From positions 2,427 through 66,426 of the forward strand of contig JAZRBV010000050.1 in NCBI GenBank assembly GCA_045635225.1: DNA of 64,000 nt, written 5' to 3'. The translations under genes and the position numbers were made by a program. This DNA comes from Eubacteriales bacterium (GTDB lineage: Bacteria; Bacillota; Clostridia; Oscillospirales; CAG-272). The notes below the pieces were generated by a model. That model saw nothing but the letters and a program-made list of their open reading frames with translations, did not search any database and had not been told where the DNA came from. Below are positions 2,571 to 47,515 of this stretch, piece by piece (position 1 is the stretch's first letter; the number at the start of each line of letters is the position of its first letter).

Positions 2571-3722
2571 ATGACCTACAACAAGCTGACAAAAGAAAAG
2601 CTCGAGGCGGCGATGAGTGCTGCCCTCGCGAAAATAGACGGAATGATGGAGAAGTTCACCGTTGATTTCCCCTCCTCGTCGTCGAAGGGCGGCGTGTATG
2701 CTCACATCGAGAACCGCGGAGGCTGGACACAGTGCTTCTACACCGGTATGCTCTTCCTCGCGTATCAGTACACGGGAGACAAGAAGTACCTCGAGCTCGG
2801 CGAGCGGCTGACCGAGTCCTTCATCAACCGAGTTGACAATATGGTTGGAATGGGCGACCACGATATCGGCTTCAACTTCACACTCTCCACCGTTGCGGCG
2901 TATATGACGACGGGCAAGAAGATCTACCGCGAGAAGGCTATCGCGGCGGCACGCGTGCTCGGTGACCGTTTCAGAGAGAAGGGACAGTTCATCCAGATCG
3001 CAGGAGATGCGAACTGCGAGAACAAGGCATATTACCGCCTGATCATCGACTGCCTGATGAACGTTAACCTGCTCTATTGGGCAGGCCGTGAGACGGGCGA
3101 TGCAGAGTTTACTCGCAAGGGCTTCTCTCACTTCAACACCACGATGGAGACGGTCGTACGCGACGACGGCTCGACCTTCCAGAACTTCTACTTTGATCCC
3201 GCGACGGGTGCAAGACTCGGCGGCGGCACGAAGCAGGGTCTCTCCGCGACCAGCTGCTGGTCGCGCGGTCAGGCGTGGGGCGTGACGGGTGTTCCCTTCA
3301 CCTACTCCTATATGAAAAACGACGGGGTACTCCCGAAGTATTATACGATCGTCGACTACTTCCTCGCTAACCTCCCGACCGACAAGATCGCGTACTGGGA
3401 TCTCGACTTCACCGACGGCGGTGAGCCTCGCGACAGCTCTGCGGCATCCATCGCGGTATGCGGTCTCATAGAGGCTACGCGCAATATGCCTCTCGACGAG
3501 GAGCATAAGGCGCGCTACGCGGCGGCTATGGAGGATATTATGTGCGCCCTCATCGACGAGTGTGCGACACAGCCCGGTGACGGCGTCGACGGTCTTCTTC
3601 TCCACGGAACCTACTACTACGCAGGCAAGCTCGGCATCGACGAGTGCTGTATCTGGGGCGACTACTTCTATATGGAAGCGCTCATGCGCCTCCTTCGTCC
3701 CGAGTGGAAAAAGTATTGGTGA
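2571..3722 (+). CDS. Glycoside hydrolase family 88 (unsaturated glucuronyl hydrolase-like)
   Basis: 383 aa, with RBS GGGAGAAAG upstream. GH88-type motifs are present: DHDIGF, CWSRGQAWG, PRDSSAASIA, IWGDYFYMEAL. Confidence 0.9.
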   Translation: MTYNKLTKEKLEAAMSAALAKIDGMMEKFTVDFPSSSSKGGVYAHIENRGGWTQCFYTGMLFLAYQYTGDKKYLELGERLTESFINRVDNMVGMGDHDIGFNFTLSTVAAYMTTGKKIYREKAIAAARVLGDRFREKGQFIQIAGDANCENKAYYRLIIDCLMNVNLLYWAGRETGDAEFTRKGFSHFNTTMETVVRDDGSTFQNFYFDPATGARLGGGTKQGLSATSCWSRGQAWGVTGVPFTYSYMKNDGVLPKYYTIVDYFLANLPTDKIAYWDLDFTDGGEPRDSSAASIAVCGLIEATRNMPLDEEHKARYAAAMEDIMCALIDECATQPGDGVDGLLLHGTYYYAGKLGIDECCIWGDYFYMEALMRLLRPEWKKYW

Positions 3723-31369: not shown

Positions 31370-31513
31370 CCCCTTTTGTAAATTTTTGTCAGTTTATCGC
31401 TGGGTATTGATTTTTTTTGCCGCAGGTGTTATAATGGTATATTATAATGCAGTATATAGTGCGGCATTCACGTGCTATATATTATAATGTAGACTTCATA
31501 AATGGAGAACCCA

Positions 31514-34500
31514 ATGAGAAAAAGAAAAATACTGCTCTCTCTCATCTCCGTCGCGATGACACTGCTTGCGATCTTCGGCGTGGTTTCAACGACCGCTCTG
31601 GCGAGCAGTGAGGAGATAGACTACGACTTCTCGCGAGAGGGCTCGCAGCATACCAGAACGCTTACGACGACCGATATACTCGATGCGATAGAGGGCATCG
31701 AACTCGGTGAGGCAGAGCGCGCCTATCTTCTGGAATACGGCGACACCGAGATAAAATACGAGGACGGTATCACCGCATCCTACGTCAGGGTCGATTACGA
31801 CGGCTCCTCGGTACTGCTCTATGCTTATGAATATAAATACGTTGCCGACAACGGGGTAGAGATCACCTGGACACCCGTGAGCGCGTCTCTTTTCGGTGTT
31901 GAGCAGACGCTGACGCTTGCGGGAGGTGCATACGCCACGAGATTCAAGTCGGTGACCGACGCTGACGAGACCACCGCCGTGGACGTCCGCTACACCCTGG
32001 CGATCACCGTTCATACCGAGACCCTTGAGGATATAGTCAACAAGGCGTACGACGACTCCTTCCTCTGGGAGGATTACATATACGAGCGAGACCTCGAGTA
32101 TAGTGCGGCTGTTGACGAATATCTCTCCGCTAAGGAAAGATTTGACACGTACCTCGCCCTTTTAGCTCAGTACGAGCTCGACGAGCAGGCGTACAACGCC
32201 TATCTTGTTGAGAAGAGAAACTACGATATTGCAGTCAATAAATACAACAAATATCTTGCCGATCTCGCCACCTACGAGGCTGAGGTAAAGGCGCGCGAGG
32301 AATATCTGAAGCTTGACGCGCAGTACAAGCTCGACGCCCAAGAGTACACGAAGTACGAGAACGCCTACGCAAAATACGAGGCGGAGGCTGTGATCTACGC
32401 CGACTATCTTTCGAAGCTCGATAAGTTCAACGCGCATCTTGCTATAATGGAATACGCGCGCACTCCTGTCACCGATATGAACAGAAGCGCATATACCGAT
32501 ATTATGGGCGGCACGGTCGATAAGGTGCTTGCCGAGCGCGACCTGCTACGCGAGCTACACGCACCCGAGCGCGTTATTGATCTCGCCGGCGCCTCGACAC
32601 GAAATCTGCGTACCATCTTTACAGAGTACTACGCGATCGAGAGCGACGTTGCAAAATACGACTATTACAGCAAAAACTATACCGCGATACGCGATAATTT
32701 CGTCAACCTGTTCACCTCGCTCGACTGTCTCTACACGAGCAACGGCGTGCAGGCGGCGATATCTACCGCAGAGACCCTATATCCCGACTCGAACTACGAT
32801 GCGAAATTCCGCATACTGATAGCAAATCTTTACGTGATAGCACACGCCCTGTCTGATACGCCGATAAAGAGCGTGTCGACAAGTCTCATAGGCTCGAAGG
32901 ACACCGTTGCTCCGAGATACAAGAGAGGATATACCTACACCTCCTTTACCATCGACGAGCTTCATCCGAAGACCCTCGCGCAGATCCTCGGCGATGCAAA
33001 ATACGTTAAGGATACCAATAATGCAAAGCCTCTCACAACGGGACACCCCGGCTTCATGGCAGAGCCCGTGCCTCCCGAATTTATGGCACGCCCTACGCCT
33101 CCCGCATACGTTGCGGAGCCTACGGCGCCCGCTATCGTCGCCGATCCCGGCGATGCACCCGCAGAGGTAGCACAGCCTACCGCACCCACCGAGGTGGAGA
33201 AGCCTACGGTACCCGAGGAGTACGTAGCGCCCGAGGTAGTTGGTGCATTGATAGCCGCGCGCGGCGTCACTCTCGTCGAGAGGGACAGAGAATTTGACAC
33301 GCCCGCCGCTATAACCGTAGAAAAGACGGTCAGCAAGCGTTTTGTAAACGTATCCGAGATCGTCGTGGCGTTCCATGATGAGAACGGTCAGCTGATCGAG
33401 CATCACACGATAGATTCGGGCAGTACCGTCAACTTTGAGGGTGATCTGCCGAGAAAGCCCGAGGACGCGAAAGCAGTCTATACCTTTGCCGGCTGGCAGA
33501 AAAAAGACGGCACCCGTGTCGATCTTTCCTCGGTCGAGGACAACGTCGACCTGTATCCCTACTTCCACGAGGACTATAAGTACTACACCGTCACTTGGAT
33601 GGTCGACGGCAACGCTGTTACCGAGGTCCTCCGCTACGGCACTCTGCCGTGCTATTCCGCCGGCACTCCGGAAAAGCCCTCGACTCCTCTCTACGTCTAT
33701 ACCTTCATAGGCTGGGATAAGGAGATCCTCGAGGTCACAGAAGACGTCGTCTATACCGCGCTCTTCGAGGAGGGGGACGTCATTCCCTCCGACGGTGACG
33801 TCACGGTCACCTTTGACGGCAACGACTATCTCGTCGACGCCACCTCGGGACGCAATACCAGATCCCTTGATATTTCGGGCATTCTCGAGCGCTCTGTTGG
33901 ACTTACGGGCGTGAAAATCGTTACACGCTCCGCCACACTCGAGATATCTCCGGCCTCCGTAATGCTCCTCAAGGAGCGCGCGGCGAGCAAGATACACATC
34001 AGCGTCATCACCAACGCGCAGGGCTACTTCAGATACTCGGTCACTGCGGACTCACCCGATGCACGCAACGCACCCGTTGATATCCCCGTCGAGCTTACCG
34101 TACCCCTTACCCGTGAGCTGAATTCCAGAGTTCGTCTGCGAGCGCTATCTCCCGACGGCGGCATCACCTACGTCCGCTACACCGTGGCGGATTCACAGAT
34201 CACGTTCACTGCAAACGTTGGCTACAACTACGAGCTGTGCGAGGAGTATTCGGTCAGTGCGTTCTCGAACGACACCGTGACCTTCACGCTCTCGAGCAGT
34301 GTCGCACTCTACGGTGACGTCGTAAAGGTCGGCGTCGAGCTCGCGCCGGGCGTTATTCTGAAGAGCCTCTACTACGTCGACGGAGATGGCAACGTAGGCG
34401 AGATACGGGCATCCCGTGTATTCGAAATGCCTAAATCCGACGTTACGGTAATGGCTGTTACCGAGCATATCCGCTACACGGTCACGTTTATGAACGGCGA

Positions 34501-34819
34501 CTCGGTATTCACCACCGTCAGCTGTATCTGGGGCGCAATACCCGTTCCTCCCGACACTCCGAAAAAGGCGAGCGACGGTGAGTTCACCTACACCTTTGTC
34601 GGCTGGGAGGAGGACGTATCTCCCGTCACCGGTGATGCCGTATATCACGCGGTGTTCGAGGCGACTCCCATACCCGTTGTGGATGAGCCGGTCAGCACAC
34701 GCCCCTCCATCCTCGAGATGTTCAAGGGCGGCGTTATAGCCGTAGGCGTGTTGCTTTTCATACTCGTCGTATGGGTCGGAACGTCCTGCATTCTCAATGC
34801 CAGAAGGTACCGTTACTGA
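31514..34819 (+). CDS. Large anchored surface protein: Tyr-rich coiled coil, Pro-rich linker, Listeria-Bacteroides (InlB B-type) repeats, C-terminal TM anchor
   Basis: The start was moved to ATG 31514 (GGAG 6 nt upstream). There is a signal peptide. Three ...YTF.GW... repeats are present (YTFAGWQKKDG, YTFIGWDKEI, YTFVGWEEDV). The C-terminus is VIAVGVLLFILVVWVGTSCILNARRYRY. Confidence 0.85.
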   Translation: MRKRKILLSLISVAMTLLAIFGVVSTTALASSEEIDYDFSREGSQHTRTLTTTDILDAIEGIELGEAERAYLLEYGDTEIKYEDGITASYVRVDYDGSSVLLYAYEYKYVADNGVEITWTPVSASLFGVEQTLTLAGGAYATRFKSVTDADETTAVDVRYTLAITVHTETLEDIVNKAYDDSFLWEDYIYERDLEYSAAVDEYLSAKERFDTYLALLAQYELDEQAYNAYLVEKRNYDIAVNKYNKYLADLATYEAEVKAREEYLKLDAQYKLDAQEYTKYENAYAKYEAEAVIYADYLSKLDKFNAHLAIMEYARTPVTDMNRSAYTDIMGGTVDKVLAERDLLRELHAPERVIDLAGASTRNLRTIFTEYYAIESDVAKYDYYSKNYTAIRDNFVNLFTSLDCLYTSNGVQAAISTAETLYPDSNYDAKFRILIANLYVIAHALSDTPIKSVSTSLIGSKDTVAPRYKRGYTYTSFTIDELHPKTLAQILGDAKYVKDTNNAKPLTTGHPGFMAEPVPPEFMARPTPPAYVAEPTAPAIVADPGDAPAEVAQPTAPTEVEKPTVPEEYVAPEVVGALIAARGVTLVERDREFDTPAAITVEKTVSKRFVNVSEIVVAFHDENGQLIEHHTIDSGSTVNFEGDLPRKPEDAKAVYTFAGWQKKDGTRVDLSSVEDNVDLYPYFHEDYKYYTVTWMVDGNAVTEVLRYGTLPCYSAGTPEKPSTPLYVYTFIGWDKEILEVTEDVVYTALFEEGDVIPSDGDVTVTFDGNDYLVDATSGRNTRSLDISGILERSVGLTGVKIVTRSATLEISPASVMLLKERAASKIHISVITNAQGYFRYSVTADSPDARNAPVDIPVELTVPLTRELNSRVRLRALSPDGGITYVRYTVADSQITFTANVGYNYELCEEYSVSAFSNDTVTFTLSSSVALYGDVVKVGVELAPGVILKSLYYVDGDGNVGEIRASRVFEMPKSDVTVMAVTEHIRYTVTFMNGDSVFTTVSCIWGAIPVPPDTPKKASDGEFTYTFVGWEEDVSPVTGDAVYHAVFEATPIPVVDEPVSTRPSILEMFKGGVIAVGVLLFILVVWVGTSCILNARRYRY

Positions 34820-34977: not shown

Positions 34978-35006
34978 TTGATTTTTAACGCCGCACGTGA
35001 TATAAT
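34978..35006 (+). promoter_or_regulatory. SigA-type promoter of the giant gene
   Basis: TTGATT, 17 nt, TATAAT. It lies about 90 nt upstream of the ATG at 35097. RBS AAAGGGG at 35084..35090. Confidence 0.55.
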
Positions 35007-35096: not shown

Positions 35097-38000
35097 ATGA
35101 GAAAGTCAAGAAAGCTAATGACTACCGTAGTCTCGCTCCTTGTCACCTGTATCATGCTTATCGGTACCCTTCTTCCGTCGGTCGCAGCGACCGTTGACGG
35201 CATTGCCGGATGGAAGACCGTGGAGAACGTTCTTAAAGAGGACGCTCCCTCTGCGGGTGGGGAAGTCGAGGGCGGAGTCGATACAGGCTGGCTCGAGATA
35301 GTCTACGGCACGGATGAGAATGGCAAGCAGTTTATTGACGTCATTCTTTCTCCGTCGAAGGAAGAGCTTAAGTCTGTCAGCAAGGCTGAGCTCGTTAGCA
35401 TTCTTACTGCTGTCATTGACGCCGCAAAGGCACTCGTCGTCGACGAGATAATGAACAGCTGGAAGGATGAGAACCTTCCCGACGATCCTACGAGTGATGA
35501 GGGTCTCGGCGATGCGGATTCCGGTTCTATCTGGGAAATAGCACTGAATCTGTACATTGACAACGCCGGCTATACCGGTGACACTGCTGAAGAAAGGTAC
35601 CTCGCATTCTTCGAGGACATCGTAAAGAACGATGCGTCCGTCGAGAAGCTTGTTATCTTTGTACGCGATAAGATCAATCTTGCATTGAGACTTGGTCTTG
35701 TAACCGTTGACGAGCTCAAGGACATCACATCCGAGAAGCTCACCACCATGGTTAATGACCTTATCAACGAATACGTTGACTCTTACGCTAAGGACCACAT
35801 TGGAGATTATATCAATTACGACAAGCTCGATGCAGCTATCAAGGGCTACTTCGAGAACTTCGGTGACGTAAACGCATACGTTCCGAAGGACCTCATTGAG
35901 GAGAAGGTAATTGAGAAGATCGAGGAGGTCCTCAACAATAAGGAAAACCGCGACGAGTACGTTAACGATTACCTTCGCGGACTGCTCACCGATTACTTGG
36001 GCGGTGTAGCGATCGATCCCGCCGTTAAGGCTGAGATCGAGGCAGAGCTCAAGAATATGCTCCTCGGCGATTACTACGAGGAAGTTAAGGAAGAGCTCAC
36101 CGACACGCTTCTTGGAGAGATCCAGGATAGACTCGAGAACGATGCCGAATTCAAGGCGGACGTTGTCGACAAGCTTACTCAGAAGGTTAAGGACGATGCT
36201 GAGTTCAGAGCTGAGATCGCCAAGAAGTTTACCGAACAGGTGAAGACCGATCCCGAGTTCAGAGCCGAGATCGCCGCACAGTTCACCGAGGATCTCAAGG
36301 CTGATCCCGAGTTCAGAGCAGAGATTGCTGCACAGTTTACTCAGGATCTCAAGAATGACGATGAGTTCAGAGCCGAGATCACCGACAAGTTCACAGAACA
36401 GATCACCCCTGAGGTCGTAGCAGACGCTAAGGTTGCGGCTAACGAGGCTGTTACCGATTACCTCGCATACTACAGAGGTGACCGTGACGATCTTCCTCTC
36501 GATGCAGAGGGTTATAAGAAGTTCATCTATGCGGAGCTTGACAACGTTCTTGTTGAGAAGATCCGTGAGGCTTATCCCTCTAGTGAGTTCCCCTACGTTG
36601 ACTTCACCAAGAACGAGCTCCCCCTTATCCGTGAGCACGATCTTCTTGATCTTAAGCCTCAGGTTATGGTTGAGATCAATGCCGTTCTCAATAGCGAAGT
36701 AAACGGTAAGCCTTATCTCGATGACGTAATCGACCAGAACTACGATACTATCGAAGCTGAGATCAGAAAGCAGGTCGAGGCGAAGCTCGCGAGCAACGAG
36801 TATGACGACGAGATCGCAGCAGAGGTTGATAAGATGCTCGCAGGCAGCGAGTTCGACGCTGAGATCACCGCTAAGGTTGAGGAGAAGCTCGCAGGCGACG
36901 AGTTCAATGCCGAGATCGAAGCGAAGGTCAATGAGATGCTCGCAGGCGACGAGTTCGACGATGAGCTGAAAGCTGAGGTTGAGGCGCGTCTTGACGAGTT
37001 CTTCGGCGACGAGCTCGATGCAGAGGCTAAGAGACTCTTCGAGGACGAGATCGACAACGAGATCAGAGAAGAGATCGAGCGCATCTTCGACGGCAACCAC
37101 GACGTTGTCGCTGAGATGAAGAAGTACGTAAGCGAGGACACCCTTCGTGAGAAGATCGAGAACCTCGACGTAACTCAGTTCGGCTTCTCCGACGAGAAGG
37201 TCGACGAGCTCATCAACGATTATCTTCCCGGCTACTTCGCAGATGCTGCGAACAGAGAGAAGGTCATCAAGGAGTTCCTTGGCAAATACGAGACCGTAGA
37301 GGACTATGCACTCGCTAACTACGAGGAGTATAAGGACTATGCGTTCGAGTACGCGCTCGACGAGATGTTCGGCATTACTCGCGCAGAGTTCGACAACAGA
37401 CTCGCATACATAGCAGGTAAGCTTGCTGCAGCCGCACAGGCAGAGGCAGAGGCGTATGAGGCTCTTCCCGAGGCTCCCACCCTCACCCCCGAGGATCTTC
37501 TCAAGGAGATCGAGAGCGTTACCGTTGACGGCAACGTTGTTCTCACCGTTGAGACGGTCGCAGGCAAGGTTACTCCCAAGATCGACTTTAACGCGGTCAA
37601 GGCGCTGATCGCAGCGCTTCCCAGCCTCTCCGAGATCACCAAGATGGAGACTCTCGCGCTTGATTGGGATATCGCGATCGCTACCACCTTCGGCGACACC
37701 GCATTCAACGTAGAGATCGAGCTTGCTACCTTCGACGATGAGGTCAAGAAGGCTATCCAGCTCTTCATCGACCACGTTAAGATCGGTATCACCGAGGACA
37801 ACACACTCTCCGTTAGCATAACTCTCCCCGAGATCGTCACCGAGCTCTTCAATCGCGCTTGCGCAACCGGCAGATTCTCTCCCGCGCTCAAGCAGAAGGT
37901 ATTCAAGCTCATGACCGCGACTCCTGCAGATTTCATCGAGATCTACAAGAGCTTCACCTTCGAGGACTTTATCGCTATTATCGAGGCTGCTGACCTTGAG

Positions 38001-41000
38001 CGTCTCGTAAACAATAAGTATTACGACGCAGCAACAGGTAAGCTCATCGACAATCCTTACGTTGACAGAGCGCTTCAGAACAAGCTCGTCGACTACATCA
38101 AAAATTATGTATCTATCCCCGAGCTTGACGGCGAGGACGTAGATAAGGTTCTTGAGTTTGTGGGCAACCTCACCAACGAGAAGATCCTCAACTACGTTGA
38201 GTCGAAGGAGTGGCTCTTCGACAAGGCTATGGCTAAGTCCATCCACTACATCGACGCACTCGTAGCTAAGATCCCCGATAGATTTATCAACAATCCCTGC
38301 TTCATGTCTATGTTCTACGAGGGACCCGAGAAGTTCGGCTTCGAGCAGTCTCTTACCGTAGACCTCTATGAGCTTGAGCTCGAGCTCCGCAAGAACCTCC
38401 CCGAGAGATTCGCTAAGTACGAGTCCGCTATCATCTTCGTGATGGGCGAGCTCAGAAGCCGCTTCGGCGACTACGTGACTGCAGGCATCGACCTTAACGT
38501 AACCGTTCCCGACGTATCCAAGATCACCTTCATGGTAGGTGACGAGGTTTATCTCGAGGGCGTCCTTCCCAACGGCGCGTACGTTCTCCAGTTCGTAGAC
38601 CTCAAGGAATACGAGGGCAGAGAAGTGCTCGGCTGGGTAGACGAGAACGGCAATAAGGTTACCTACAAGCCCGACGGTGAGACTGTGCTCTACGCAGTTC
38701 TCGAGGAGTATGCGAGCGCTGAGTTCGCTATCACCGCGGATGCGGCATTCACCGTTGATAACGGCACCTATACCTTCGTTTACGACGGTCAGACTCATAC
38801 TCTTACCGTAGCTCCCACGTCCGCAGGTCTTACCTCCGACGACGTTACCGTAACCTGGTATAAAGATGCGATTTCTGCTGAAAATATCGTGGCAGAAGGC
38901 GCGACCCTTACTCTTGGCAGCCTCGCTGATGCGGGCACGTACTACTACACCGTAACGGTTGCAGACGATGCTAAGTTTGATCCTAAGTATTACGAGAGCG
39001 AGGCAGTTACTGTTGTAGCTCTTGCACCCATTACCGACGCTGATATCGCAGTTGATATCACCGTCACCGACAAGGCAGGAAACGTTATCGTTCCCGCGGA
39101 CCTTGTTTACGTTCCCGGTGAGGAGTACACCTTCACCGCAGACGTTACCGTTGCGAACACTGCTCTTGCGGATCTTCCCTTTGGTTCGTATAGCTATCAG
39201 TGGTACGTAAGCGATACGTCCGACTTCGCTGATGCTGTTAAGATCGACGGCGCTACCGATTCGACCTACACCGTCAGCGGCAATGCACAGGCAACGAAGT
39301 ACTACTTCTGTGAGTTCGTATTCGAGTACGATACGGTCACCGCAAGCTCCGTTGACCACGTCGGCTTCGGCGTAGAGAAGGCTGGCATTGACGCATCTAC
39401 CTTCTGGGCAGTAGCAGACGGCACGGTATATATCTACGGTGAGACGGTATCCGTTCTCGCGGCAGATTTTGCAGAGAAGTACGCAGGTCTTCTTAACGTT
39501 GAGTACGGCGCGGGCTTCGGCACCGAGGTTGGCACCGCAACTGCGAAGATCACTCTCGTTGACTCCGATAACTACTACATGTATCTTGACGGTGCGACCG
39601 TTACCGAGTCCACCCTCTCGATCACCGTTATCCCCGCGCTTCAGTTCGCTCTTACCGCGAGCGACATCACCGCTATCTACGATCCCGCTACCAACTACGA
39701 TCTCACCGCACTTGAGAGCATTGCTCTCCTCGGCACCACCGGTACCGACGGCGTCAGCGTAGTTTGGGAGAGACTCGTTGACGGCAAGTGGGTAGAGGCT
39801 ACTGCTCTCACTCTCGCTAACGTTGCTGACAGCGGCGAGTACAGAGCAACTGCGACCTACGTGCAGGCAGGCAAGACTCAGACCGCCTCCGCAAGCGTTA
39901 AGGTTACCGTAACTCCTAAGGAAGTTATGTATACCGTAAACGCAGAGTGGTGGAACGTTGTCGCCGACTTCACCTATAACGGTAAGAACCACGCGATTTC
40001 TCAGGACTTCTTCAAGACCTGGGAGGTTGCAGCTAACATTCCCGAGAACGTAAGTATCGCATATAGCTTCGCTATCGCTAACTATCTTCCCGGTACTTAC
40101 AGCGTAACTGCTACCATCAGTCCTCTGAACGGTGACGATAACTACGTTTACTCGGTATCCGAAACTCATTACACTCTCCACTACACCGTAAAGAAGGCTT
40201 CCTTCGATCTCGGTGCTCTTAAGTGGTACGTTAACAACGGCACCGAGACCAAGCTTCTCGAGAGTGCTCTCGTTAACGGCAAGCTTCCCGCAGGTCCCGC
40301 ATACACCGTATTCCTCGGCGGATACGAGAACGTATACGGCGATCTCGTTCCCAGCTACTCCACCAACGGTGCTAACGGCTATACCGACGCATCGAAGCCT
40401 GTTAAGTATCCCTCCGGCAACGGCGGCTACGAAACCTACTTCGACGGCTTCACCGTAGTTGTTGAGATCGACGGTGATACCTTCGAGCATAAGCTCAAGG
40501 ATTGCTACGACGTGACCGGCACCATCACCGCCGATGCGGTTAAGTGGGATATTGCAGGTCTCATCTTCACCTGTGGCGACGTTATCATCATCGACTCCGC
40601 CGCAGCGCTCCTCGGCTACGAGGTCAGCGTCAGCGTGAAGGACGTTTCCGCAAACGGTGAGCACAAGATCGTTAATACCAAGACCTATACTCCCGTATAC
40701 GAGTACGTTATCACGGTTACCCTTGACGGCGAGGCAGTAGACGCTCCCGCAGGTGACTACGTGATCATCATACCCGCACTTGAGAATAAGGAGAGCTTCC
40801 TTATCTCTTATAACAGCAACGGCTCCGGCGCCGCAATGGTTGACGAAACCGCTGTGGACGGTGCGTTCGAGTTCAACGCGACCGAGACCGCCTTCGGTGG
40901 TACTAAGTTTGCGGTTGCTACTCTCTATACTCCCGTAACTCCTCCCGAGCCTGAGTACGATCCTGTACACAAGACCGAGGACGGAACCGTTATCGTAACC

Positions 41001-44000
41001 GATAAGAATAATACTCTTAAGGGTTATCAGATCTCCGTCACCGAAAGCATTTACAAAGGTCAGCCGCAGACTCTTGACGGTACCCACTATCTTGTTAAGG
41101 CAGGCTACCGCATTGCCTTCGTTGATAAGCTCGGTGTAGAGAAGGAGTATACCGCTGAGGATCTCTTCGAGGTATCCGTTCTCATCCCCGGTGAGTTTGT
41201 CGATACCAAATTCACAGTGCTTGTGATCGACGGCGATACCGTCACAGTCGTTGACGTTGACGTTGTAAACGGCAGAGCAGTATTTACTGCATCCGCACTC
41301 TCTACCGTCAACTTCGCTATCGTGACCTCCGGGCCCATCGATCCTCCCACACCTCCCGAGTACGATATCAACCGTACCGAGACCTTCGTTGATGCGAACG
41401 GTCAGGAGTACACCGTAGTCGTAGTCGACACCGACAAGAAGCTCGAGGCGTACGAGACTATGATAGTCGAGGCGCGCAACGACCTCGCGGATTCTACCGA
41501 GTTCGGCACCATCGACGGCGTAAACTACGTCGGACACTTCGGCTTCAACCTTCGCTTCGTTGATGTGAATACCGGCGCTACTTATTCCGGCACCGATTCC
41601 TTCAGCGTAACCGTTACCGTTCCTAACCTTCTCGGTGCAAACTTCGTGCTTCTCGGCTACAACGGCACCGCATGGGAGGTCGTAGCAGACGGTACCGATT
41701 ACGATGTATCGAATAATACCGTAACCTTCGAGACCACCCTCTTCTCCGTATTCGCATTTGCAGAGGAGACTATTTCCGATGACGATTACGATGGCATCCA
41801 CAACGGTGGTATTAAGGAAAACGGCGAGATCATCTATAACGTAACCGTTCTTGATGACCTTACCGAAACTCTCAAGGGCTACACCGTCATCGTTAACAGC
41901 GGTGTGGTTAAAGAGCAGCCTTACGTCATCGGCGAGAATCAGTATAAGGCACTCTTCGCATACGAGATCGGCTTCATTGACGAAAACTACGTCCTGAGAA
42001 CCGAGTATAGCGGCGCAAATCAGTTCAGCGTAACGGTTGACGTTCCCACCGCACTTCAGGGCAAGACCCTTTACGTCATCGGTGAGAACGCGGACGGCAC
42101 TGCAGAGCTTCTCGCTTCCACAAGCGGCGTTGCAGGTGCGACGGTACGCTTCTTCACCACTCACTTCAACTACACGAACTTCGTTCTTGCAGAGCTCGTT
42201 TCGGGCGATGCACCCGATCATAAGATCGAGCATAACGGATCCTTCGATCACTTCGACGGAACCACTAACAGCGTTACCGTATATGACCCGAGCTACGTTC
42301 TCGAGGATTATACCATGAACGTTGGTACTATTCCCTCGACACTTACGTCTGTTACCGTAGGCAATAACGATTACATCGTTCTCGGCGGCTTCAGCATTCT
42401 GTTCAGACTTGACTTCGAAGCCTATGACGGAACCGACAGCACCTTCACCGTGAACGTAACCGTTCCCGAGGTGCTCAGAGCTCAGAACCTCGTTCTTCTC
42501 GCGAAGAGAGGCGGCGAGTGGACCGTAGTGGTTGACAGCTATGGCCACACCGAGTCTATTCAGTTCCAGACCAACACCTTCGGTACCTTCGCATTTGCTA
42601 AGGTTAAGACCGGCGGCGGTGTTACTCCTCCCGATGAGTACGACGGTATCCAGAGCGGTACTGTTGATTACACCAACGGTGCAGAGGGTGACCTGCTCAA
42701 CGTCACAGTCCTTGACACTAATAAGGTTCTTGAGGATTACGGTATCACCGTAGGCGCTATCAATAGCCTTATCGGTAGCAAGGTAGAGGCTGACGGAGGC
42801 AACTACAAGATCCTCGTTGGCTTCTCGATCGGCTTCGCAAACATCGACGGCGACCCCTACGTGGGCACCGAGTCCTTCAGCGTCAGCATCAAGACTCCCG
42901 GCTCTCTCAGAGGTAAGACTCTCGTAGTTCTTGGCAGAACTGCTGATGGCTGGCAGGTTCTTACGACCGTTAGTGATGCAGGCGAGCAGATCGCATTCAC
43001 CACTACCTACTTCTCCGACTTCGCTATTGCCGAGAGCTACGCTCCCTATCAGGGACAGCAACAGGGCAGTATGAATCACGAGAACGTAGATTACAACGTA
43101 ACCATCGTTGACCCCAATCACGTTCTTGATGGTCACCAGATCGTAGTTTCTCACGCCGCAGACGTTCCCACCGAGGTACAGCTCGGCGAGACCAAGTACA
43201 ACGTACACCTGAGCTACGACATCTCCTTCGGAGATCTCGACCTTAGCGAGAACGACAAGAAATTTACCGTAACTCTCGACGTACCCGTTTCTCTCAGAGA
43301 CCGTAAGCTCACAGTTATTCACTATGCGGCAGACGGTACCGTAGAGGATATGAACGCACAGTACGTCAGAGGCTCCCAGTACATCTCCTTCGAGACGACT
43401 CACTTCTCTATCTACGCGATAGCAGAGAAGCAGAGCGATACTCAGGGCGGTGACGATAGTGGACTTGGTATTAATCCCTGGCACATCGTCATTGCTGTAG
43501 TAGCAGTTCTCGTCATTCTTCTCATCGTTCTTCTCATTCTCAGAAGACGCGGTGGCAGAAGCATAGGCGGATCCAGACGCATTGGACGCATCGGACGCTC
43601 CGGTTACTCGAGACGCGGACGCGGCGGACGCGGCGGATACCGTTATGACGACCGTCACTACGACGTAATTGATACCATCGAGCTCTACGACGATCTTAAG
43701 AGTGCTGAGTGGAAGGCACCCACCACTGTAAGGATCAAGGCAGCTGAGCCCGCTGAGATCAAGCTCAAGGATACCGCTCCTATCGCTAACGGTCAGGCTA
43801 GGTCCAGAACCGAGACCATCACCGTAACCGAGAGAAAGGTACCCACCACCGATTACAGATCTAAGGCTACCGGCTCCGGTCTTGTTACCGAGATGCCCGA
43901 TACCAGAGTCGCAATAGTTCCTGAGAGAGTTGGTTCTACCACTGTTATCAAGCCTGTTATCAACACCGTACCCGTTGCACAGCCCACTGTTGTTGCAGCT

Positions 44001-46799
44001 CCCGCTGTTGTTGCAGAGCCTGTAGTAGTTGCCGAGCCTATCAAGACTAAGAAGGCTAAGAAGGTTAACGTAGACGGCCTTGTAACCATCGCCGCTCCCG
44101 TAGCACCTGTTGTTAAGGCTCCTGTAGCACCTGCCGCTCCCGTAGCACCTGCAGCACCCGTTGCTCCTGCTCCCGTAGCTGCTCCCGCTCCCGCACCTGT
44201 TGCTCCCGCTCCTGTAGTTGTAGCACCTGTTGCAGAGCCTGCTAAGTTCGAGCCTATCGCTAAGCCTATTGCGAAGCCTCTTGTAATGCCCGAGGCTCCC
44301 ATCATTCTCACTAAGTCTGCCGAGACTGCAGAGATCGTTACTGCAGCACCCGTCGCGACCGTTGTTGAGCCTGTTGTAGAGGAGACTCCCGCAGTACCCG
44401 TAGCACCCGTGGCTACTGCACCCGCAGAGCCCGTACGCATCGTCGTTACCGAGCCTGCACCTGCCGCAGCACCCGCCGCTCCCGCAGCGACCATTGTTGC
44501 CGCAGCAGCTGCTAACGTTGCACCCGTAGTAGTTGAGCCTATCACCATAGCTCAGCCTCCCGTTGTAATAGTTGCAGATCCCGTAATTCCTCCCATTAAG
44601 GTCGTTCTTGGCAATACCGAGCCTGAGGAAGAGGTCGTAGAGACCGAGCCCGAGGTAATCGAGGAGATCGTCGAGGAGATCGTTGAGGAGGTAGCTCCCG
44701 TAGAAGAAGAGACTCCCGTCGAGGAAGAAGCTCCCGTCGAGGAAGAGGCTCCCGCAGAGGAAGAGGCTCCCGCAGAGGAAGAAGCTCCCGTCGAGGAAGA
44801 AACTCCCGTCGAGGAAGAAGCTCCCGTAGAGGAAGAGGCTCCCGTAGAGGAAGAAACTCCCGCTGAGGAAGAAGCTCCCGTAGAGGAAGAGGCTCCCGCA
44901 GAGGAAGAGGCTCCCGTAGAGGAAGAGGCTCCCGTAGAGGAAGAGGCTCCCGTCGAGGAAGAGACTCCCGTCGAGGAAGAGGCTCCCGCAGAGGAGGAGG
45001 CTCCCGCAGAGGAAGAGGCTCCCGCAGAGGAAGAGGCTCCCATTGAGGAGATCATCATCGAGGTTGAACCCATCGAGGATGCTCCTGCAGAGGAGGCTAC
45101 CGAGATTGTAGAGCAGCCCGTCGTTGTACCTCACGGTCCCGATGAGGGTACCATGATCATCAACGGTCAGGTAGTACTCGTTCACTACAGAAGCTCGTTC
45201 ATGTCCAGACTCATCCAGTCCGAGGGCGCAGTTCAGGATTACTACAACGTGATCAAGAACGTACTTCTCTCCTACAAGGGTGTTAAGGCGAGAACCAGCT
45301 GGAGCTGTGAGTCCTTCAATAAGGGCAGAATCCAGTGCTCCAAGATCAACGTAAAGGGCAGAACCCTTACCGTATATCTCGCACTCGATCCTAAGGAATA
45401 CGCAGAATCGAAGTATCACTTCACCGATGTATCCGGCAAGCCTAAGTTCGAAAAGGTTCCTATGCTTGTCAAGGTAAGAAGCGACAGAGCTCTCAAGTAT
45501 GCTCTCGAGCTCATCGAGGAAATGATGAACAAGCTTGAGATACCTCAGGGTGAGATCCAGAACGTTGATTACCATATGCCTTACGAGGAGACCGAGGCTC
45601 TCGTTGAGCGCGATCTCGTAAAGGTTATCCTTCCCGCAGGCGTAACTCTTGATGATAATGCTAACGTTGTTAAGCTCGACGTTGGTGAGCTCATCGAGAA
45701 TGCAAAGGCAGAGGCTGATGCGAGAGCAGAGGCTGAGCCCGAGGTCGTTGAGACCGTCGAGGAAGCTCCCGTTGAGGAAGCTCTCGTCGAGGAAGCTCCC
45801 GTCGAGGAAACTCCCGTTGAGGAAGAGACCCCCGCAATCGAGGATCTCGTAGCAGACGAGACCACCGAGGACACCAACACCGATGACGTGAACGTAGGAT
45901 CGCTTCTCAAGTTCATTGGCGACGGCGTTGATGAGACCGAGACCGTCGAGGAGGCAGTTGAGGAAGAGGCTGTTGAGGCTGAGCCCGAGGTTGTCGAGGA
46001 GGCAGTTGAGGAAGAGGCTGTTGAGGCTGAACCCGAGGTTGTCGAGGAGGCAGTCGAGGAAGAGGTCGTTGAGGCTGAGCCCGAGGTTGTCGAGGAGGCA
46101 GTTGAGGAAGAGGTCGTTGAGGCTGAACCCGAGGTTGTCGAGGAGACAGTTGAGGAAGAGGCTGTTGAGGCTGAACCCGAGGTTGTCGAGGAGACAGTTG
46201 AGGAAGAGGTCGTTGAGGCTGAACCCGAGGTTGTCGAGGAGACAGTCGAGGAAGAGGTCGTTGAGGCTGAACCCGAGGTTGTCGAGGAGACAGTTGAGGA
46301 AGAGGTCGTTGAGGCTGAACCCGAGGTTGTCGAGGAGACAGTTGAGGAAGAGGTCGTTGAGGCTGAACCCGAGGTTGTCGAGGAGACAGTTGAGGAAGAG
46401 GTCGTTGAGGCTGAACCCGAGGTTACCGCCGAGGAGGCTATGATGACTCCCGACGAGGAGGGCAGAGTCCACGTTGACGCAATTCACGCAGACGAGCTCA
46501 TAACCGACGAGGAGGCTGAGGCAAGCATCGAGGTAGTTAAGACCGCTGCTAAGAAGTCCGGCGGCAAGATGGTAGAGATCAACATCGACGTCATCTGCGA
46601 GAACTTCGAGGACGGCGACACCGTAACTCTCGACTCACTCAAGGCAAAGAGACTTGTTCCCGCAAACGCAGGCAGACTTAAGGTTCTTGCTCGCGGCATT
46701 ATGACGAAGAACAACATCGTCGTAGTTGCTGACAAGTTCTCGCTCTCCGCTGTAAAGATGATCACCCTCGCGGGCGGTCGTGCCGAGCAGCAGAAGTAA
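35097..46799 (+). CDS. Giant (3,900 aa) single-pass membrane protein with a uL15-like C-terminal domain
   Basis: The ORF is uninterrupted. A signal peptide is present (MRKSRKLMTTVVSLLVTCIMLIGTLLPSVAA). It is followed by an acidic helical region, Ig-like repeats and seven ~136-aa tandem modules. A TM helix (WHIVIAVVAVLVILLIVLLIL) is followed by RRRGG..., then a Pro/Ala/Val-rich segment and acidic repeats. The last ~75 aa align to the ribosomal protein uL15 C-terminus. Confidence 0.9.
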   Translation: MRKSRKLMTTVVSLLVTCIMLIGTLLPSVAATVDGIAGWKTVENVLKEDAPSAGGEVEGGVDTGWLEIVYGTDENGKQFIDVILSPSKEELKSVSKAELVSILTAVIDAAKALVVDEIMNSWKDENLPDDPTSDEGLGDADSGSIWEIALNLYIDNAGYTGDTAEERYLAFFEDIVKNDASVEKLVIFVRDKINLALRLGLVTVDELKDITSEKLTTMVNDLINEYVDSYAKDHIGDYINYDKLDAAIKGYFENFGDVNAYVPKDLIEEKVIEKIEEVLNNKENRDEYVNDYLRGLLTDYLGGVAIDPAVKAEIEAELKNMLLGDYYEEVKEELTDTLLGEIQDRLENDAEFKADVVDKLTQKVKDDAEFRAEIAKKFTEQVKTDPEFRAEIAAQFTEDLKADPEFRAEIAAQFTQDLKNDDEFRAEITDKFTEQITPEVVADAKVAANEAVTDYLAYYRGDRDDLPLDAEGYKKFIYAELDNVLVEKIREAYPSSEFPYVDFTKNELPLIREHDLLDLKPQVMVEINAVLNSEVNGKPYLDDVIDQNYDTIEAEIRKQVEAKLASNEYDDEIAAEVDKMLAGSEFDAEITAKVEEKLAGDEFNAEIEAKVNEMLAGDEFDDELKAEVEARLDEFFGDELDAEAKRLFEDEIDNEIREEIERIFDGNHDVVAEMKKYVSEDTLREKIENLDVTQFGFSDEKVDELINDYLPGYFADAANREKVIKEFLGKYETVEDYALANYEEYKDYAFEYALDEMFGITRAEFDNRLAYIAGKLAAAAQAEAEAYEALPEAPTLTPEDLLKEIESVTVDGNVVLTVETVAGKVTPKIDFNAVKALIAALPSLSEITKMETLALDWDIAIATTFGDTAFNVEIELATFDDEVKKAIQLFIDHVKIGITEDNTLSVSITLPEIVTELFNRACATGRFSPALKQKVFKLMTATPADFIEIYKSFTFEDFIAIIEAADLERLVNNKYYDAATGKLIDNPYVDRALQNKLVDYIKNYVSIPELDGEDVDKVLEFVGNLTNEKILNYVESKEWLFDKAMAKSIHYIDALVAKIPDRFINNPCFMSMFYEGPEKFGFEQSLTVDLYELELELRKNLPERFAKYESAIIFVMGELRSRFGDYVTAGIDLNVTVPDVSKITFMVGDEVYLEGVLPNGAYVLQFVDLKEYEGREVLGWVDENGNKVTYKPDGETVLYAVLEEYASAEFAITADAAFTVDNGTYTFVYDGQTHTLTVAPTSAGLTSDDVTVTWYKDAISAENIVAEGATLTLGSLADAGTYYYTVTVADDAKFDPKYYESEAVTVVALAPITDADIAVDITVTDKAGNVIVPADLVYVPGEEYTFTADVTVANTALADLPFGSYSYQWYVSDTSDFADAVKIDGATDSTYTVSGNAQATKYYFCEFVFEYDTVTASSVDHVGFGVEKAGIDASTFWAVADGTVYIYGETVSVLAADFAEKYAGLLNVEYGAGFGTEVGTATAKITLVDSDNYYMYLDGATVTESTLSITVIPALQFALTASDITAIYDPATNYDLTALESIALLGTTGTDGVSVVWERLVDGKWVEATALTLANVADSGEYRATATYVQAGKTQTASASVKVTVTPKEVMYTVNAEWWNVVADFTYNGKNHAISQDFFKTWEVAANIPENVSIAYSFAIANYLPGTYSVTATISPLNGDDNYVYSVSETHYTLHYTVKKASFDLGALKWYVNNGTETKLLESALVNGKLPAGPAYTVFLGGYENVYGDLVPSYSTNGANGYTDASKPVKYPSGNGGYETYFDGFTVVVEIDGDTFEHKLKDCYDVTGTITADAVKWDIAGLIFTCGDVIIIDSAAALLGYEVSVSVKDVSANGEHKIVNTKTYTPVYEYVITVTLDGEAVDAPAGDYVIIIPALENKESFLISYNSNGSGAAMVDETAVDGAFEFNATETAFGGTKFAVATLYTPVTPPEPEYDPVHKTEDGTVIVTDKNNTLKGYQISVTESIYKGQPQTLDGTHYLVKAGYRIAFVDKLGVEKEYTAEDLFEVSVLIPGEFVDTKFTVLVIDGDTVTVVDVDVVNGRAVFTASALSTVNFAIVTSGPIDPPTPPEYDINRTETFVDANGQEYTVVVVDTDKKLEAYETMIVEARNDLADSTEFGTIDGVNYVGHFGFNLRFVDVNTGATYSGTDSFSVTVTVPNLLGANFVLLGYNGTAWEVVADGTDYDVSNNTVTFETTLFSVFAFAEETISDDDYDGIHNGGIKENGEIIYNVTVLDDLTETLKGYTVIVNSGVVKEQPYVIGENQYKALFAYEIGFIDENYVLRTEYSGANQFSVTVDVPTALQGKTLYVIGENADGTAELLASTSGVAGATVRFFTTHFNYTNFVLAELVSGDAPDHKIEHNGSFDHFDGTTNSVTVYDPSYVLEDYTMNVGTIPSTLTSVTVGNNDYIVLGGFSILFRLDFEAYDGTDSTFTVNVTVPEVLRAQNLVLLAKRGGEWTVVVDSYGHTESIQFQTNTFGTFAFAKVKTGGGVTPPDEYDGIQSGTVDYTNGAEGDLLNVTVLDTNKVLEDYGITVGAINSLIGSKVEADGGNYKILVGFSIGFANIDGDPYVGTESFSVSIKTPGSLRGKTLVVLGRTADGWQVLTTVSDAGEQIAFTTTYFSDFAIAESYAPYQGQQQGSMNHENVDYNVTIVDPNHVLDGHQIVVSHAADVPTEVQLGETKYNVHLSYDISFGDLDLSENDKKFTVTLDVPVSLRDRKLTVIHYAADGTVEDMNAQYVRGSQYISFETTHFSIYAIAEKQSDTQGGDDSGLGINPWHIVIAVVAVLVILLIVLLILRRRGGRSIGGSRRIGRIGRSGYSRRGRGGRGGYRYDDRHYDVIDTIELYDDLKSAEWKAPTTVRIKAAEPAEIKLKDTAPIANGQARSRTETITVTERKVPTTDYRSKATGSGLVTEMPDTRVAIVPERVGSTTVIKPVINTVPVAQPTVVAAPAVVAEPVVVAEPIKTKKAKKVNVDGLVTIAAPVAPVVKAPVAPAAPVAPAAPVAPAPVAAPAPAPVAPAPVVVAPVAEPAKFEPIAKPIAKPLVMPEAPIILTKSAETAEIVTAAPVATVVEPVVEETPAVPVAPVATAPAEPVRIVVTEPAPAAAPAAPAATIVAAAAANVAPVVVEPITIAQPPVVIVADPVIPPIKVVLGNTEPEEEVVETEPEVIEEIVEEIVEEVAPVEEETPVEEEAPVEEEAPAEEEAPAEEEAPVEEETPVEEEAPVEEEAPVEEETPAEEEAPVEEEAPAEEEAPVEEEAPVEEEAPVEEETPVEEEAPAEEEAPAEEEAPAEEEAPIEEIIIEVEPIEDAPAEEATEIVEQPVVVPHGPDEGTMIINGQVVLVHYRSSFMSRLIQSEGAVQDYYNVIKNVLLSYKGVKARTSWSCESFNKGRIQCSKINVKGRTLTVYLALDPKEYAESKYHFTDVSGKPKFEKVPMLVKVRSDRALKYALELIEEMMNKLEIPQGEIQNVDYHMPYEETEALVERDLVKVILPAGVTLDDNANVVKLDVGELIENAKAEADARAEAEPEVVETVEEAPVEEALVEEAPVEETPVEEETPAIEDLVADETTEDTNTDDVNVGSLLKFIGDGVDETETVEEAVEEEAVEAEPEVVEEAVEEEAVEAEPEVVEEAVEEEVVEAEPEVVEEAVEEEVVEAEPEVVEETVEEEAVEAEPEVVEETVEEEVVEAEPEVVEETVEEEVVEAEPEVVEETVEEEVVEAEPEVVEETVEEEVVEAEPEVVEETVEEEVVEAEPEVTAEEAMMTPDEEGRVHVDAIHADELITDEEAEASIEVVKTAAKKSGGKMVEINIDVICENFEDGDTVTLDSLKAKRLVPANAGRLKVLARGIMTKNNIVVVADKFSLSAVKMITLAGGRAEQQK
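44694..45050 (+). repeat. 18-nt tandem repeat (~20 copies) encoding (A/T)P(V/A)EEE
   Basis: GCTCCCGTCGAGGAAGAA-type units are repeated head to tail, inside the giant CDS. Confidence 0.9.
45939..46424 (+). repeat. 48-nt tandem repeat (~10 copies) encoding EPEVVEE(A/T)VEEE(A/V)VEA
   Basis: Nine full units run from 45981 to 46412, with partial units at both ends. The 3' units are almost identical at the nucleotide level. Confidence 0.9.
46569..46796 (+). other. uL15 (ribosomal protein L15) C-terminal-like domain at the end of the giant protein
   Basis: MVEINIDVICENFEDGDTVTLDSLKAKRLVPANAGRLKVLARGIMTKNNIVVVADKFSLSAVKMITLAGGRAEQQK was aligned by eye with the bacterial uL15 C-terminus (VNLD.[11 protein letters not shown]...G.I......VKILG.G.L.KKLTVKA.KFS.SA.E.IEAAGG). 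Confidence 0.7.
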
Positions 46800-46851
46800 T
46801 TAAAAAAATCTCTCCTTCGCCGAGTGATCGGCGAGGGGAGAGATGAAAATA

Positions 46852-46886
46852 AAAAAGGATGTGATCCTCGGATCGCATCCTTTTTT
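46852..46886. terminator. Bidirectional terminator after the giant gene
   Basis: Stem GGATGTGATCC / GGATCGCATCC is flanked by AAAAAA and TTTTTT. A second hairpin (46809..46843) precedes it. Confidence 0.7.
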
Positions 46887-46948
46887 ATTTAACGGTAACA
46901 ATATTTAATCTTTAATTCAGCCGTTACGGCGGTTGATATAGCGGCGGA

Positions 46949-47515
46949 TCAGAGCGTCACCTTGAAATACACGGAATATGTATCCCCCTCGTCGCCACAT
47001 GATCTTGTGACGGTGAGGTGATCGTATTCCTTGAGGGTGGCGTCGCCCGATATGATCTCGCGCACATCCGTGTCGCTTACACCGTAGTAGCGAAGAATTC
47101 GGGCTACGGTGCGCTTGCCGCCGCTTACGATATCCCGATAGACGTTGATCTCGTGCTCGTCACCCACATTGCTCCAGGAGAAGATGTCGCCGTCGGAGCT
47201 GCCCGTTACCTCAAGGCGTAGCTTGTGTCTCGGGCGTACTGTTACGACTAGCGTTTTGCCCTCCTCGAGCGTGGTCGCTTCCTTAGTCGAGTAGGGACCT
47301 ATCGAGCGGATCTCCTCGGTTGAGAGCTTCACGATACGGAATAGATATATCAGTATAAATGCTATACCGCCGCCCGATGCGATTATCAGGGGATAGAGCT
47401 TTAACGCGCCCGTCATAATGCCGTTATTCATTATCGAAACTATGAGCACGATCACCGGCGGTATCAACGTCAGATACATTCTCGGCTTAGTACAGAAGAA
47501 ATATAGATTCTTCAT
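46949..47515 (-). CDS. Hypothetical membrane protein (two TM helices plus a soluble domain)
   Basis: 188 aa. The start codon overlaps the stop of the GH2 gene (TAATG). Confidence 0.6.
   Translation of the reverse strand: MKNLYFFCTKPRMYLTLIPPVIVLIVSIMNNGIMTGALKLYPLIIASGGGIAFILIYLFRIVKLSTEEIRSIGPYSTKEATTLEEGKTLVVTVRPRHKLRLEVTGSSDGDIFSWSNVGDEHEINVYRDIVSGGKRTVARILRYYGVSDTDVREIISGDATLKEYDHLTVTRSCGDEGDTYSVYFKVTL

Follow-up and report, generated by a model that had tools for sequence, protein, structure and literature searches.

We find that a giant predicted surface protein of an Eubacteriales bacterium (Clostridia; Oscillospirales; CAG-272) ends in a real but diverged paralogue of the globular C-terminal domain of ribosomal protein uL15. 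The window, i.e., the 64,000-nucleotide (nt) stretch of contig JAZRBV010000050.1 (assembly GCA_045635225.1) analysed here, carries the gene at 35097-46799 on the forward strand as one uninterrupted open reading frame (ORF) of 3,900 amino acids and a stop, with zero N and zero frame breaks. Positions 46569-46796 (+) are the in-frame end of this ORF and translate to exactly the 76 residues that an earlier reading, made from the letters alone and hereafter the sequence-only reading, had described as uL15-like. Proteins with this end-module form a large, unstudied family of Bacillota surface proteins, found for the most part in gut metagenome-assembled genomes (MAGs), and we see about an even chance that the best overall explanation is a diverged uL15 end-module of a giant surface protein that tethers RNA at the membrane. 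The large conserved family, a helical motif and a further domain (domain X) upstream of the tail, and residues that are invariant in the tails only are all additions to the sequence-only reading.

The resemblance of the tail to uL15 is real because five tests agree. Pfam PF00828 (Ribosomal_L27A/uL15/eL18) scores 45.6 bits on the tail (E = 9.3e-12; gathering score, 21.5), with the profile fully covered (1-72 of 72) at residues 3827-3897, and phmmer against PDB sequences returns 18 matches, every one of them uL15 and always at residues ~76-145. A tblastn search with a true Clostridial uL15 finds 46578-46787 at E = 2e-8 and 40% identity, spanning uL15 residues 77-144, while no other uL15-like sequence in the 64-kb window is significant, the remaining tblastn matches having E > 2. 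Aligned by hhalign with Clostridial uL15, the tail family gives 98.5% probability (E = 1.5e-15) over 71 columns, corresponding to uL15 residues 75-145. Finally, an AlphaFold2 model of the last 119 residues (predicted local distance difference test score, pLDDT, of 82) was compared with the PDB by Foldseek, and all 50 of the 50 listed matches are large-subunit ribosome entries, with uL15 or an archaeal or organellar counterpart of it as the named chain; the best E is 9.8e-6, and the root-mean-square deviation from Thermus thermophilus uL15 is 2.0 Å over 79 columns. The alignment to the uL15 C-terminal domain proposed in the sequence-only reading is therefore borne out by profile, by profile-profile comparison and by predicted structure, and the motifs listed there (INxD, EDGDxVT, KVLxxG, KFSxSA and AGG) are columns conserved in both families. 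Comparison of one of these stretches (FEDGDTVT versus FNDGDVVT) clearly points to a bacterial, Clostridia-like uL15 as the source of the tail.

The tail protein is not a ribosomal protein. The rplO model TIGR01071 scores 38.7 bits on the tail alone, at profile positions 69-143 of 144 only, and 31.3 bits on the whole protein, below its equivalog cut-off of 77.95. The Gly/Arg/Lys-rich N-terminal extension of uL15 (~residues 1-70), the part that threads into 23S rRNA, is present neither in the ORF nor, by tblastn, elsewhere in the window; acidic repeats and an acidic helical motif stand in its place, and the TIGR01071, tblastn and hhalign matches all cover the C-terminal part only, so that the missing glycine-rich half reported earlier is indeed missing. 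Nor does the tail take the free-standing, ~145-residue form found in the spc operon (rpmD-secY), as it ends a 3,900-residue ORF and is followed by a terminator. The protein contacts described for uL15 in the ribosome involve Pro8 (with uL4), Pro23 (with bL21), and Arg50, Glu52 and Pro63 (with bL35) (PMC4881015); since all of these lie at or before residue 63, and are absent in the tail, only an RNA-facing role could have been inherited. In sum, the tail shares with uL15 (RplO) an alpha/beta globular domain that is collinear with residues 75-145, 34-40% identical and of the same predicted fold, and differs from it in having no extension, in being fused to a membrane protein outside the spc operon, and in being preceded by a helical motif of its own. 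It is akin to eL18 (L18e) through the shared Pfam family, a weak match to NCBIfam NF003079 (E = 4e-4) and the archaeal chains among the fold matches, but matches eL18 far more weakly than bacterial uL15.

A species-level scan, with one genome per species, finds 153 stretches that encode such a tail, 80 of which were returned as loci and analysed, with architectures read by extending the frame upstream from each tail; about 40 of these loci contain complete ORFs. All 80 loci are from MAGs, assigned to Clostridia, Eubacteriales, Oscillospiraceae, Ruminococcus, Bacilli, Bacillales or Erysipelotrichaceae, and mostly from the guts of ruminants and other animals. ORFs that are not cut by a contig end share one plan, consisting of a signal, an ectodomain, a transmembrane (TM) segment with a K/R cluster, an acidic linker in most members, zero to three copies of domain X, and the tail, in which a conserved helical motif comes before the uL15-like domain. 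In complete ORFs the tail reaches the C-terminus or stops a few residues short of it, and a K/R cluster follows the last TM segment in nearly all members; the Bacilli versions have three hydrophobic segments (a TM segment and then a hairpin), with the C-terminus still predicted to be inside. The ectodomain ranges from 20 to more than 2,900 residues and is only ~20 residues long in three members (L031, L042, L047). When 1.84 billion representative proteins, clustered at 50% identity, are searched exhaustively with the profile, 419 clusters match at E ≤ 1e-30 and 1,615 match at E ≤ 1e-10. For the great majority of the best 150 of the 419, whose proteins are as long as 3,676 residues, the match stops no more than a few residues short of the protein end.

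One subfamily of ~1,600 residues (L067, L070, L072, L073, L081, L083 and L084) has neither domain X nor a long acidic linker, and its ectodomain is conserved over its full length (33-44% identity). Downstream of these genes, on the same strand, lie an RluA-type pseudouridine synthase and an AlaX-like editing protein, a pair that is preceded in four of the seven loci by an S component like that of energy-coupling factor transporters (~190-213 residues); these translation-related neighbours may reflect plain synteny. Two copies of the tail gene occur in four MAGs, and in three of these one copy contains domain X and the other does not. GenBank automatically names members of 917-1,771 residues (MBQ2794293.1 and MBR3680368.1; P0432 and P0168 in our set) "uL15 family ribosomal protein", which is misleading for such giant members, and JGI labels detached tails "ribosomal protein L15" or "L18E".

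The tails are clearly separable from uL15. The window tail is 43-93% identical to other Clostridia and Bacilli tails versus 34-38% to true Clostridial uL15 C-terminal domains; a tail hidden Markov model (HMM) gives 221 tails 87-144 bits versus 23-60 bits for 117 true uL15 proteins, with no overlap, and a uL15 HMM gives the tails 28-54 bits versus 256-306 bits for uL15. Positions kept in both families are the N of (V/I)N, DG, V-T, L, the K of KVL and the second G of G-x-G, together with the K of TK, F, A, I and GG, while N, K, L, G, S, A, K, M, I, L and GG are invariant across the 221 tails. Invariant in the tails only are the A-R of KVLARG, where the Clostridial uL15 set has G-N, and AVKMITLAGG, where uL15 has AKEKIEALGG; these changes place a new Arg in the glycine loop and turn a charged, exposed helix hydrophobic. 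The window protein carries the family signature KVLARG...FS(L/I)(Q/S)AVKMI(T)LAGG as KVLARG...FSLSAVKMITLAGG. It also has the helical motif DAxxADxLxxDxxAxxxIE (VDAIHADELITDEEAEASIE, residues 3792-3811), which is absent from uL15 and whose residues recur in the 221 tails at frequencies of 0.95 (A), 0.92 (D), 0.94 (D), 0.99 (A), 0.81 (I) and 0.82 (E).

Conservation inside the cell differs sharply from that outside. Compared with full-length relatives that carry the domains, the window protein is 55-78% identical in the tail and 58-84% in domain X (49% in the short-ectodomain member L031), with identity falling to 43-53% in distant Bacilli and members without domain X, while its ectodomain aligns at 21-31% identity across no more than 36% of the ectodomain length, or shows no similarity. 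This contrast between a conserved interior and an exterior that changes fast, or is nearly missing, argues for a conserved function in the cytoplasmic module. Judged from these alignments, the tail is under strong purifying selection and belongs to a distinct, constrained family.

The predicted topology of the window protein is type-I (N-out, C-in); the coordinates that follow are all on the forward strand. A putative signal peptide at residues 1-31 (35097-35189), read from the sequence, begins MRKSRK and has a hydrophobic core, with a hydrophobic segment at residue 11 and a candidate SVAA/T cleavage site. The ectodomain, residues 32-2794 (35190-43478), is at first acidic and helical, with 51/54-nt repeats, and then turns into beta-rich repeats; it has no Pfam hit, and no sequence relationship was found for it, while ectodomains of relatives bear Flg_new (Listeria-Bacteroides), MBG and immunoglobulin domains. 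A Kyte-Doolittle scan predicts a single TM helix at residues 2795-2815 (WHIVIAVVAVLVILLIVLLIL; 43479-43541), followed by an Arg/Gly-rich juxtamembrane stretch at residues 2816-2855 (RRRGGRSIGGSRRIGRIGRSGYSRRGRGGRGGY; 43542-43661). The sequence RRRGGR follows the helix and, under the positive-inside rule, would place the tail in the cytoplasm, such that a signal peptide, one TM helix and RRRGGR together agree with the cytoplasmic end of a membrane giant foreseen in the sequence-only reading. The RGG-box-like character of RRRGGRSIGGSRRIGRIGRSGYSRRGRGGRGGY is peculiar to the window protein, its relatives having plain K/R clusters only.

Beyond the membrane, a short motif, LYDDLxxxxW, at residues 2861-2872 (IELYDDLKSAEW; 43677-43712) is common to several relatives; in the form LY(D/E)(D/E)Lxxx(K/E)W it lies 20-60 residues past the TM segment and is also found in L007, L031, L042, L047 and L066, which include members with nearly no ectodomain. 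Tandem-repeat analysis then delineates a low-complexity Pro/Ala/Val-rich stretch followed by EEAPVEE repeats (residues ~2960-3325; 43974-45071), the latter encoded by 19.8 copies of an 18-nt unit with 89% identity at 44694-45049. Domain X, a conserved cytoplasmic alpha+beta domain, occupies residues 3346-3532 (YRSSFMSRLIQS...YY..IKN.LLSYKGVK.R.SW..ESFNKGR; 45132-45692). After it comes a polyacidic linker (VEEAVEEE...) at residues 3544-3783 (45726-46445), encoded at 45945-46424 by ten copies of a 48-nt unit that are 96% identical; related assemblies break at the linker because of these near-identical repeats. The family-specific helical motif (residues 3790-3814, RVHVDAIHADELITDEEAEASIEVV; 46464-46538) directly precedes the uL15-like globular domain, which takes up residues 3825-3900 (46569-46796; Pfam envelope, residues 3827-3897).

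We propose that the uL15-like domain hangs below the membrane on this long, flexible, polyanionic linker, where it would hold a structured RNA close to the inner side of the membrane, under the surface protein. The likeliest such RNA would be the 23S ribosomal RNA (rRNA) of a ribosomal particle with its uL15 site vacant, or else a mimic of rRNA. RNA binding is suggested because the part retained from uL15 is the one seated on 23S rRNA, because the polar and basic uL15 invariants are kept (N, the K of KVL, the G-x-G glycine, the Lys of TK, and GG), and because an extra invariant Arg has been fixed in the G-x-G loop. That the uL15-derived domain still acts as an RNA-binding surface is a tentative proposition, to which we give somewhat less than an even chance, and the docking of ribosomes or rRNA put forward in the sequence-only reading is plausible. 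The helical motif is modelled by AlphaFold2 as two helices and a strand (pLDDT 76-84), folded against the uL15-like domain, and we infer that it packs on the hydrophobic last helix. Being amphipathic, it would probably cover the hydrophobic face of that helix (AVKMITL) and so replace the missing uL15 extension as the N-terminal partner of the domain.

Several considerations weigh against RNA tethering. The retention of an RNA-binding face is something that we infer from conservation alone; mature 50S subunits already hold uL15, so that any ribosomal target must be a particle that lacks it; and the 1,085 cytoplasmic residues have a net charge of -186, which disfavours general RNA binding. It is equally conceivable that the acidic motif hides the basic face, the tail-specific invariants are largely hydrophobic (V, M, L) and fit a protein interface as well, and the genomic neighbours show no clear functional link. 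A further reading, which we regard as distinctly unlikely, is that some large subunits, be they assembly intermediates or ribosomes devoid of uL15, bind the tail at their uL15 site or at a mimic of that site. If true, ribosomal particles would be physically coupled to the inner ends of giant surface proteins in hundreds of gut Firmicutes, giving a dedicated pool of ribosomes tethered to the membrane, or a route from the cell surface inwards to translation or to the assembly of ribosomes.

The main rival reading, possible if on the unlikely side, is a different use of the same domain, namely that RNA binding was lost and the tail was exapted as a protein-protein module, whether an oligomerisation or adaptor domain that acts with the helical motif and would cluster, anchor or position the surface protein from within the cell, or a folded stopper. 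The conversion of AKEKIEA to AVKMITL, i.e., of a charged exposed helix to a hydrophobic one that is invariant in 221 sequences, is what would be expected of such a module, and its cytoplasmic surroundings are polyanionic; moreover, a 2024 review of what bacterial ribosomal proteins do outside the ribosome reports no extraribosomal function for uL15, which it names solely as belonging to the spc operon (PMC10931766). However, the hydrophobic face may be satisfied internally by the conserved motif, the basic, Asn and Gly positions of every uL15 are still invariant, with an Arg added to them, and no partner gene co-occurs across the family.

Domain X bears on another explanation, a defence or conflict sensor in which the ectodomain meets phages or competitors and domain X with the tail serves as effector or decoy, by ribosome guarding or translation interference. 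Domain X has 171 homologues, some with a tail after it, and two of these are called "uL15 family ribosomal protein, partial" by GenBank; many are Oscillospiraceae or Ruminococcaceae proteins of ~355 residues (P0111, P0118, P0159) with a hydrophobic N-terminus, an acidic linker, domain X and no tail. It has no match in Pfam or among PDB sequences, NCBIfam is silent when searched with the whole protein, and PHROGs gives only a chance-level match to a tail fibre (E = 0.019). Its one sequence match is to the PADLOC candidate PDC-S18 (E = 3.9e-8, 30.7 bits, positions 207-331 of 365), which is also matched by the ~355-residue proteins that contain domain X without a tail. The AlphaFold2 model of domain X (pLDDT 89.9) has only weak structural matches, to a phage-encoded DUF5655 protein (Foldseek E = 1.4e-3), D9ZNF6 (E = 2e-4), YjbR (2fki; probability 0.98, E = 0.05), YdhG/DUF1801 and frataxin-like proteins. 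The PDC-S18 match, the fold resemblance to a phage protein and the rapid diversification of the ectodomain would all suit a role in defence. Against this, PDC-S18 is itself a candidate family, no paper on it was found in the literature, and its model is matched only in part; the relationship is homology at the level of one domain only (~125 of 365 positions), in a locus that is not defence-like, being a neighbourhood of sugar and peptide metabolism and not a defence island. PDC-S18, YjbR, YdhG and DUF5655 are relatives of domain X, not of the tail, and their own functions are only predicted at best. One subfamily, furthermore, has the tail without domain X, and a search of IMG/VR finds no relatives, on which ground a phage origin was also rejected. 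We therefore consider the defence explanation improbable.

It is very improbable that the tail is translated from an internal start (MMTPDEE... or MVEINID...) as a small protein of its own, whether a free uL15-like factor or an alternative ribosomal protein. Gene callers do report 75-208-residue proteins in relatives, and the second ATG, at 46443, has a GGAGG 5 nt ahead of it. The short calls, however, are due to N gaps or frameshifts just upstream, and GAGGAG is the Glu-Glu codon pair that fills the region. The methionines vary, with relatives having IFAPDEE or IVADEE, and GKL or GKF in place of GKM, and a conserved internal start was rejected, as neither Met is conserved. The domain, in addition, has no extension of the kind that anchors uL15 in the ribosome, and the sole full-length uL15 with a tail-like end is a chimeric contig.

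The small-protein calls had been prominent in the first tail search, which returned 46 close relatives that were all short (75-208 residues). Free-standing small uL15-like genes were nevertheless rejected, for N gaps or frameshifts lie directly upstream and the frame continues from the acidic repeats. The acidic repeats of L001 and L002 contain a scaffold gap of 100 N, and the frame runs on from the repeats into the tail; for L084 and L085, the short tail call and the end of an upstream ORF (1,589 and 1,017 residues, respectively) overlap in different frames. Genes appear split in public annotations because 100-N gaps replace the repeat regions in related scaffolds. One 147-residue protein, P0039, looks like an evolutionary intermediate, with a full uL15 and a tail-like C-terminus, and was rejected as a chimera. 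Its contig (L003; ERZ808125 NODE_54236) is 929 bp long with a coverage of 0.83 and a break in composition; the N-terminal half is 98% identical to P0308, yet P0308 has an ordinary uL15 C-terminus. The junction falls at the shared FNDGDVVT/FEDGDTVT and is followed by a tail-family C-terminus with its terminator and then by unrelated AT-rich DNA.

That an assembly artefact or read-through joined part of rplO to a surface-protein gene, the concern raised in the sequence-only reading, is excluded for all practical purposes, since, although the upstream acidic tandem repeats do break assemblies, the same junction is found in frame at ~80 loci, spread over dozens of independent assemblies that differ in study and assembler, the tails have invariant residues of their own and only 34-38% identity to Clostridial uL15, and the stop is followed by a terminator, with rpmD and secY not nearby.

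This terminator consists of two strong hairpins right after the stop of the giant ORF (46808-46844 and 46847-46890, +), which RNA folding scores at -54.7 kcal/mol (z = -10.9) and which end in a U-run after the second hairpin; a simple terminator scan did not pick them up. The A/T runs that flank the second hairpin would let it serve the convergent gene as well. That gene, 46949-47515 (-), encodes a 188-residue membrane protein without a family and is kept in 37 loci; a glycoside hydrolase family 2 (GH2) glycosidase and then a Rce1-like protease lie beyond it. Upstream, at 31502-34819 (+), is a 1,105-residue secreted protein with a weak Listeria-Bacteroides repeat, under the Pfam cut-off, which adjoins the giant gene in 21 loci. 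The 1,105- and 188-residue neighbours are uninformative on function because both travel with general synteny (GH2, DUF1846), and no spc-operon-like genes (rpmD, secY) are present near the giant gene. A consensus scan finds a sigma-70-like promoter match (TTGATT-17-TATAAT, with TG; 10/12) at 34978-35006 (+), ~90 nt upstream of the giant ORF, which is suggestive only, as shuffled sequences also yield one match. Rfam and transfer RNA scans of the window give zero hits.

The codons TTA, CTA and TCA occur three times in the 3,900 sense codons of the giant gene, compared to ~44 expected from ten neighbouring genes (11.4 per 1,000), which indicates a very strong bias in codon usage that may stem from high expression. 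On the opposite strand of the gene, a 3,790-codon frame is open at 35115-46487 (-), and it is so long because these three codons are so rare on the sense strand; in relative L001, gene callers annotated antisense frames in place of the real gene.

No publication on a membrane-anchored uL15-tail family was found in the literature, and the uL15/eL18 fold is, to our knowledge, known only from ribosomal proteins. What is new here is the re-use of a ribosomal-protein domain outside the ribosome, for a fold not previously seen there as far as we know. The closest analogies are partial. Escherichia coli YqjD, ElaB and YgaM, and the C-terminal tails of YidC2/Oxa1, are membrane-anchored ribosome binders that use unrelated basic tails or small domains; if the mechanism proposed above is right, the likeness would lie in a membrane anchor that keeps ribosomal particles on the cytoplasmic side. 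In contrast to the window protein, these proteins are small, with no homology to a ribosomal protein and no giant ectodomain. Staphylococcus aureus Ebh is a giant, type-I anchored Gram-positive surface protein that is not anchored by sortase through LPXTG, and resembles the window protein in its signal peptide, very long repetitive ectodomain, one C-terminal TM segment and charged cytoplasmic tail; we know of no uL15-like domain or domain X in the Ebh tail.

These findings have a practical side, as gene callers often detach the tail as a small ribosomal protein that can contaminate marker sets and distort estimates of MAG completeness and contamination; the chimeric P0039 contig illustrates how tails contaminate ribosomal-protein data sets. 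For the biology of the family, they mean that a universal part of the ribosome has been given a second job at the inner membrane face of surface proteins, and that this uL15-like domain is the most conserved part of a family with fast-evolving exteriors, mostly in uncultured gut Clostridia and Bacilli. If the domain has switched to protein binding, it would be a clean case of re-use of a universal ribosomal-protein domain, with the changed residues visible in the alignments. If it still binds rRNA, it would link the cell surface directly to ribosomes or to ribosome assembly, a surface-to-ribosome arrangement of a kind that we do not know from any bacterium.

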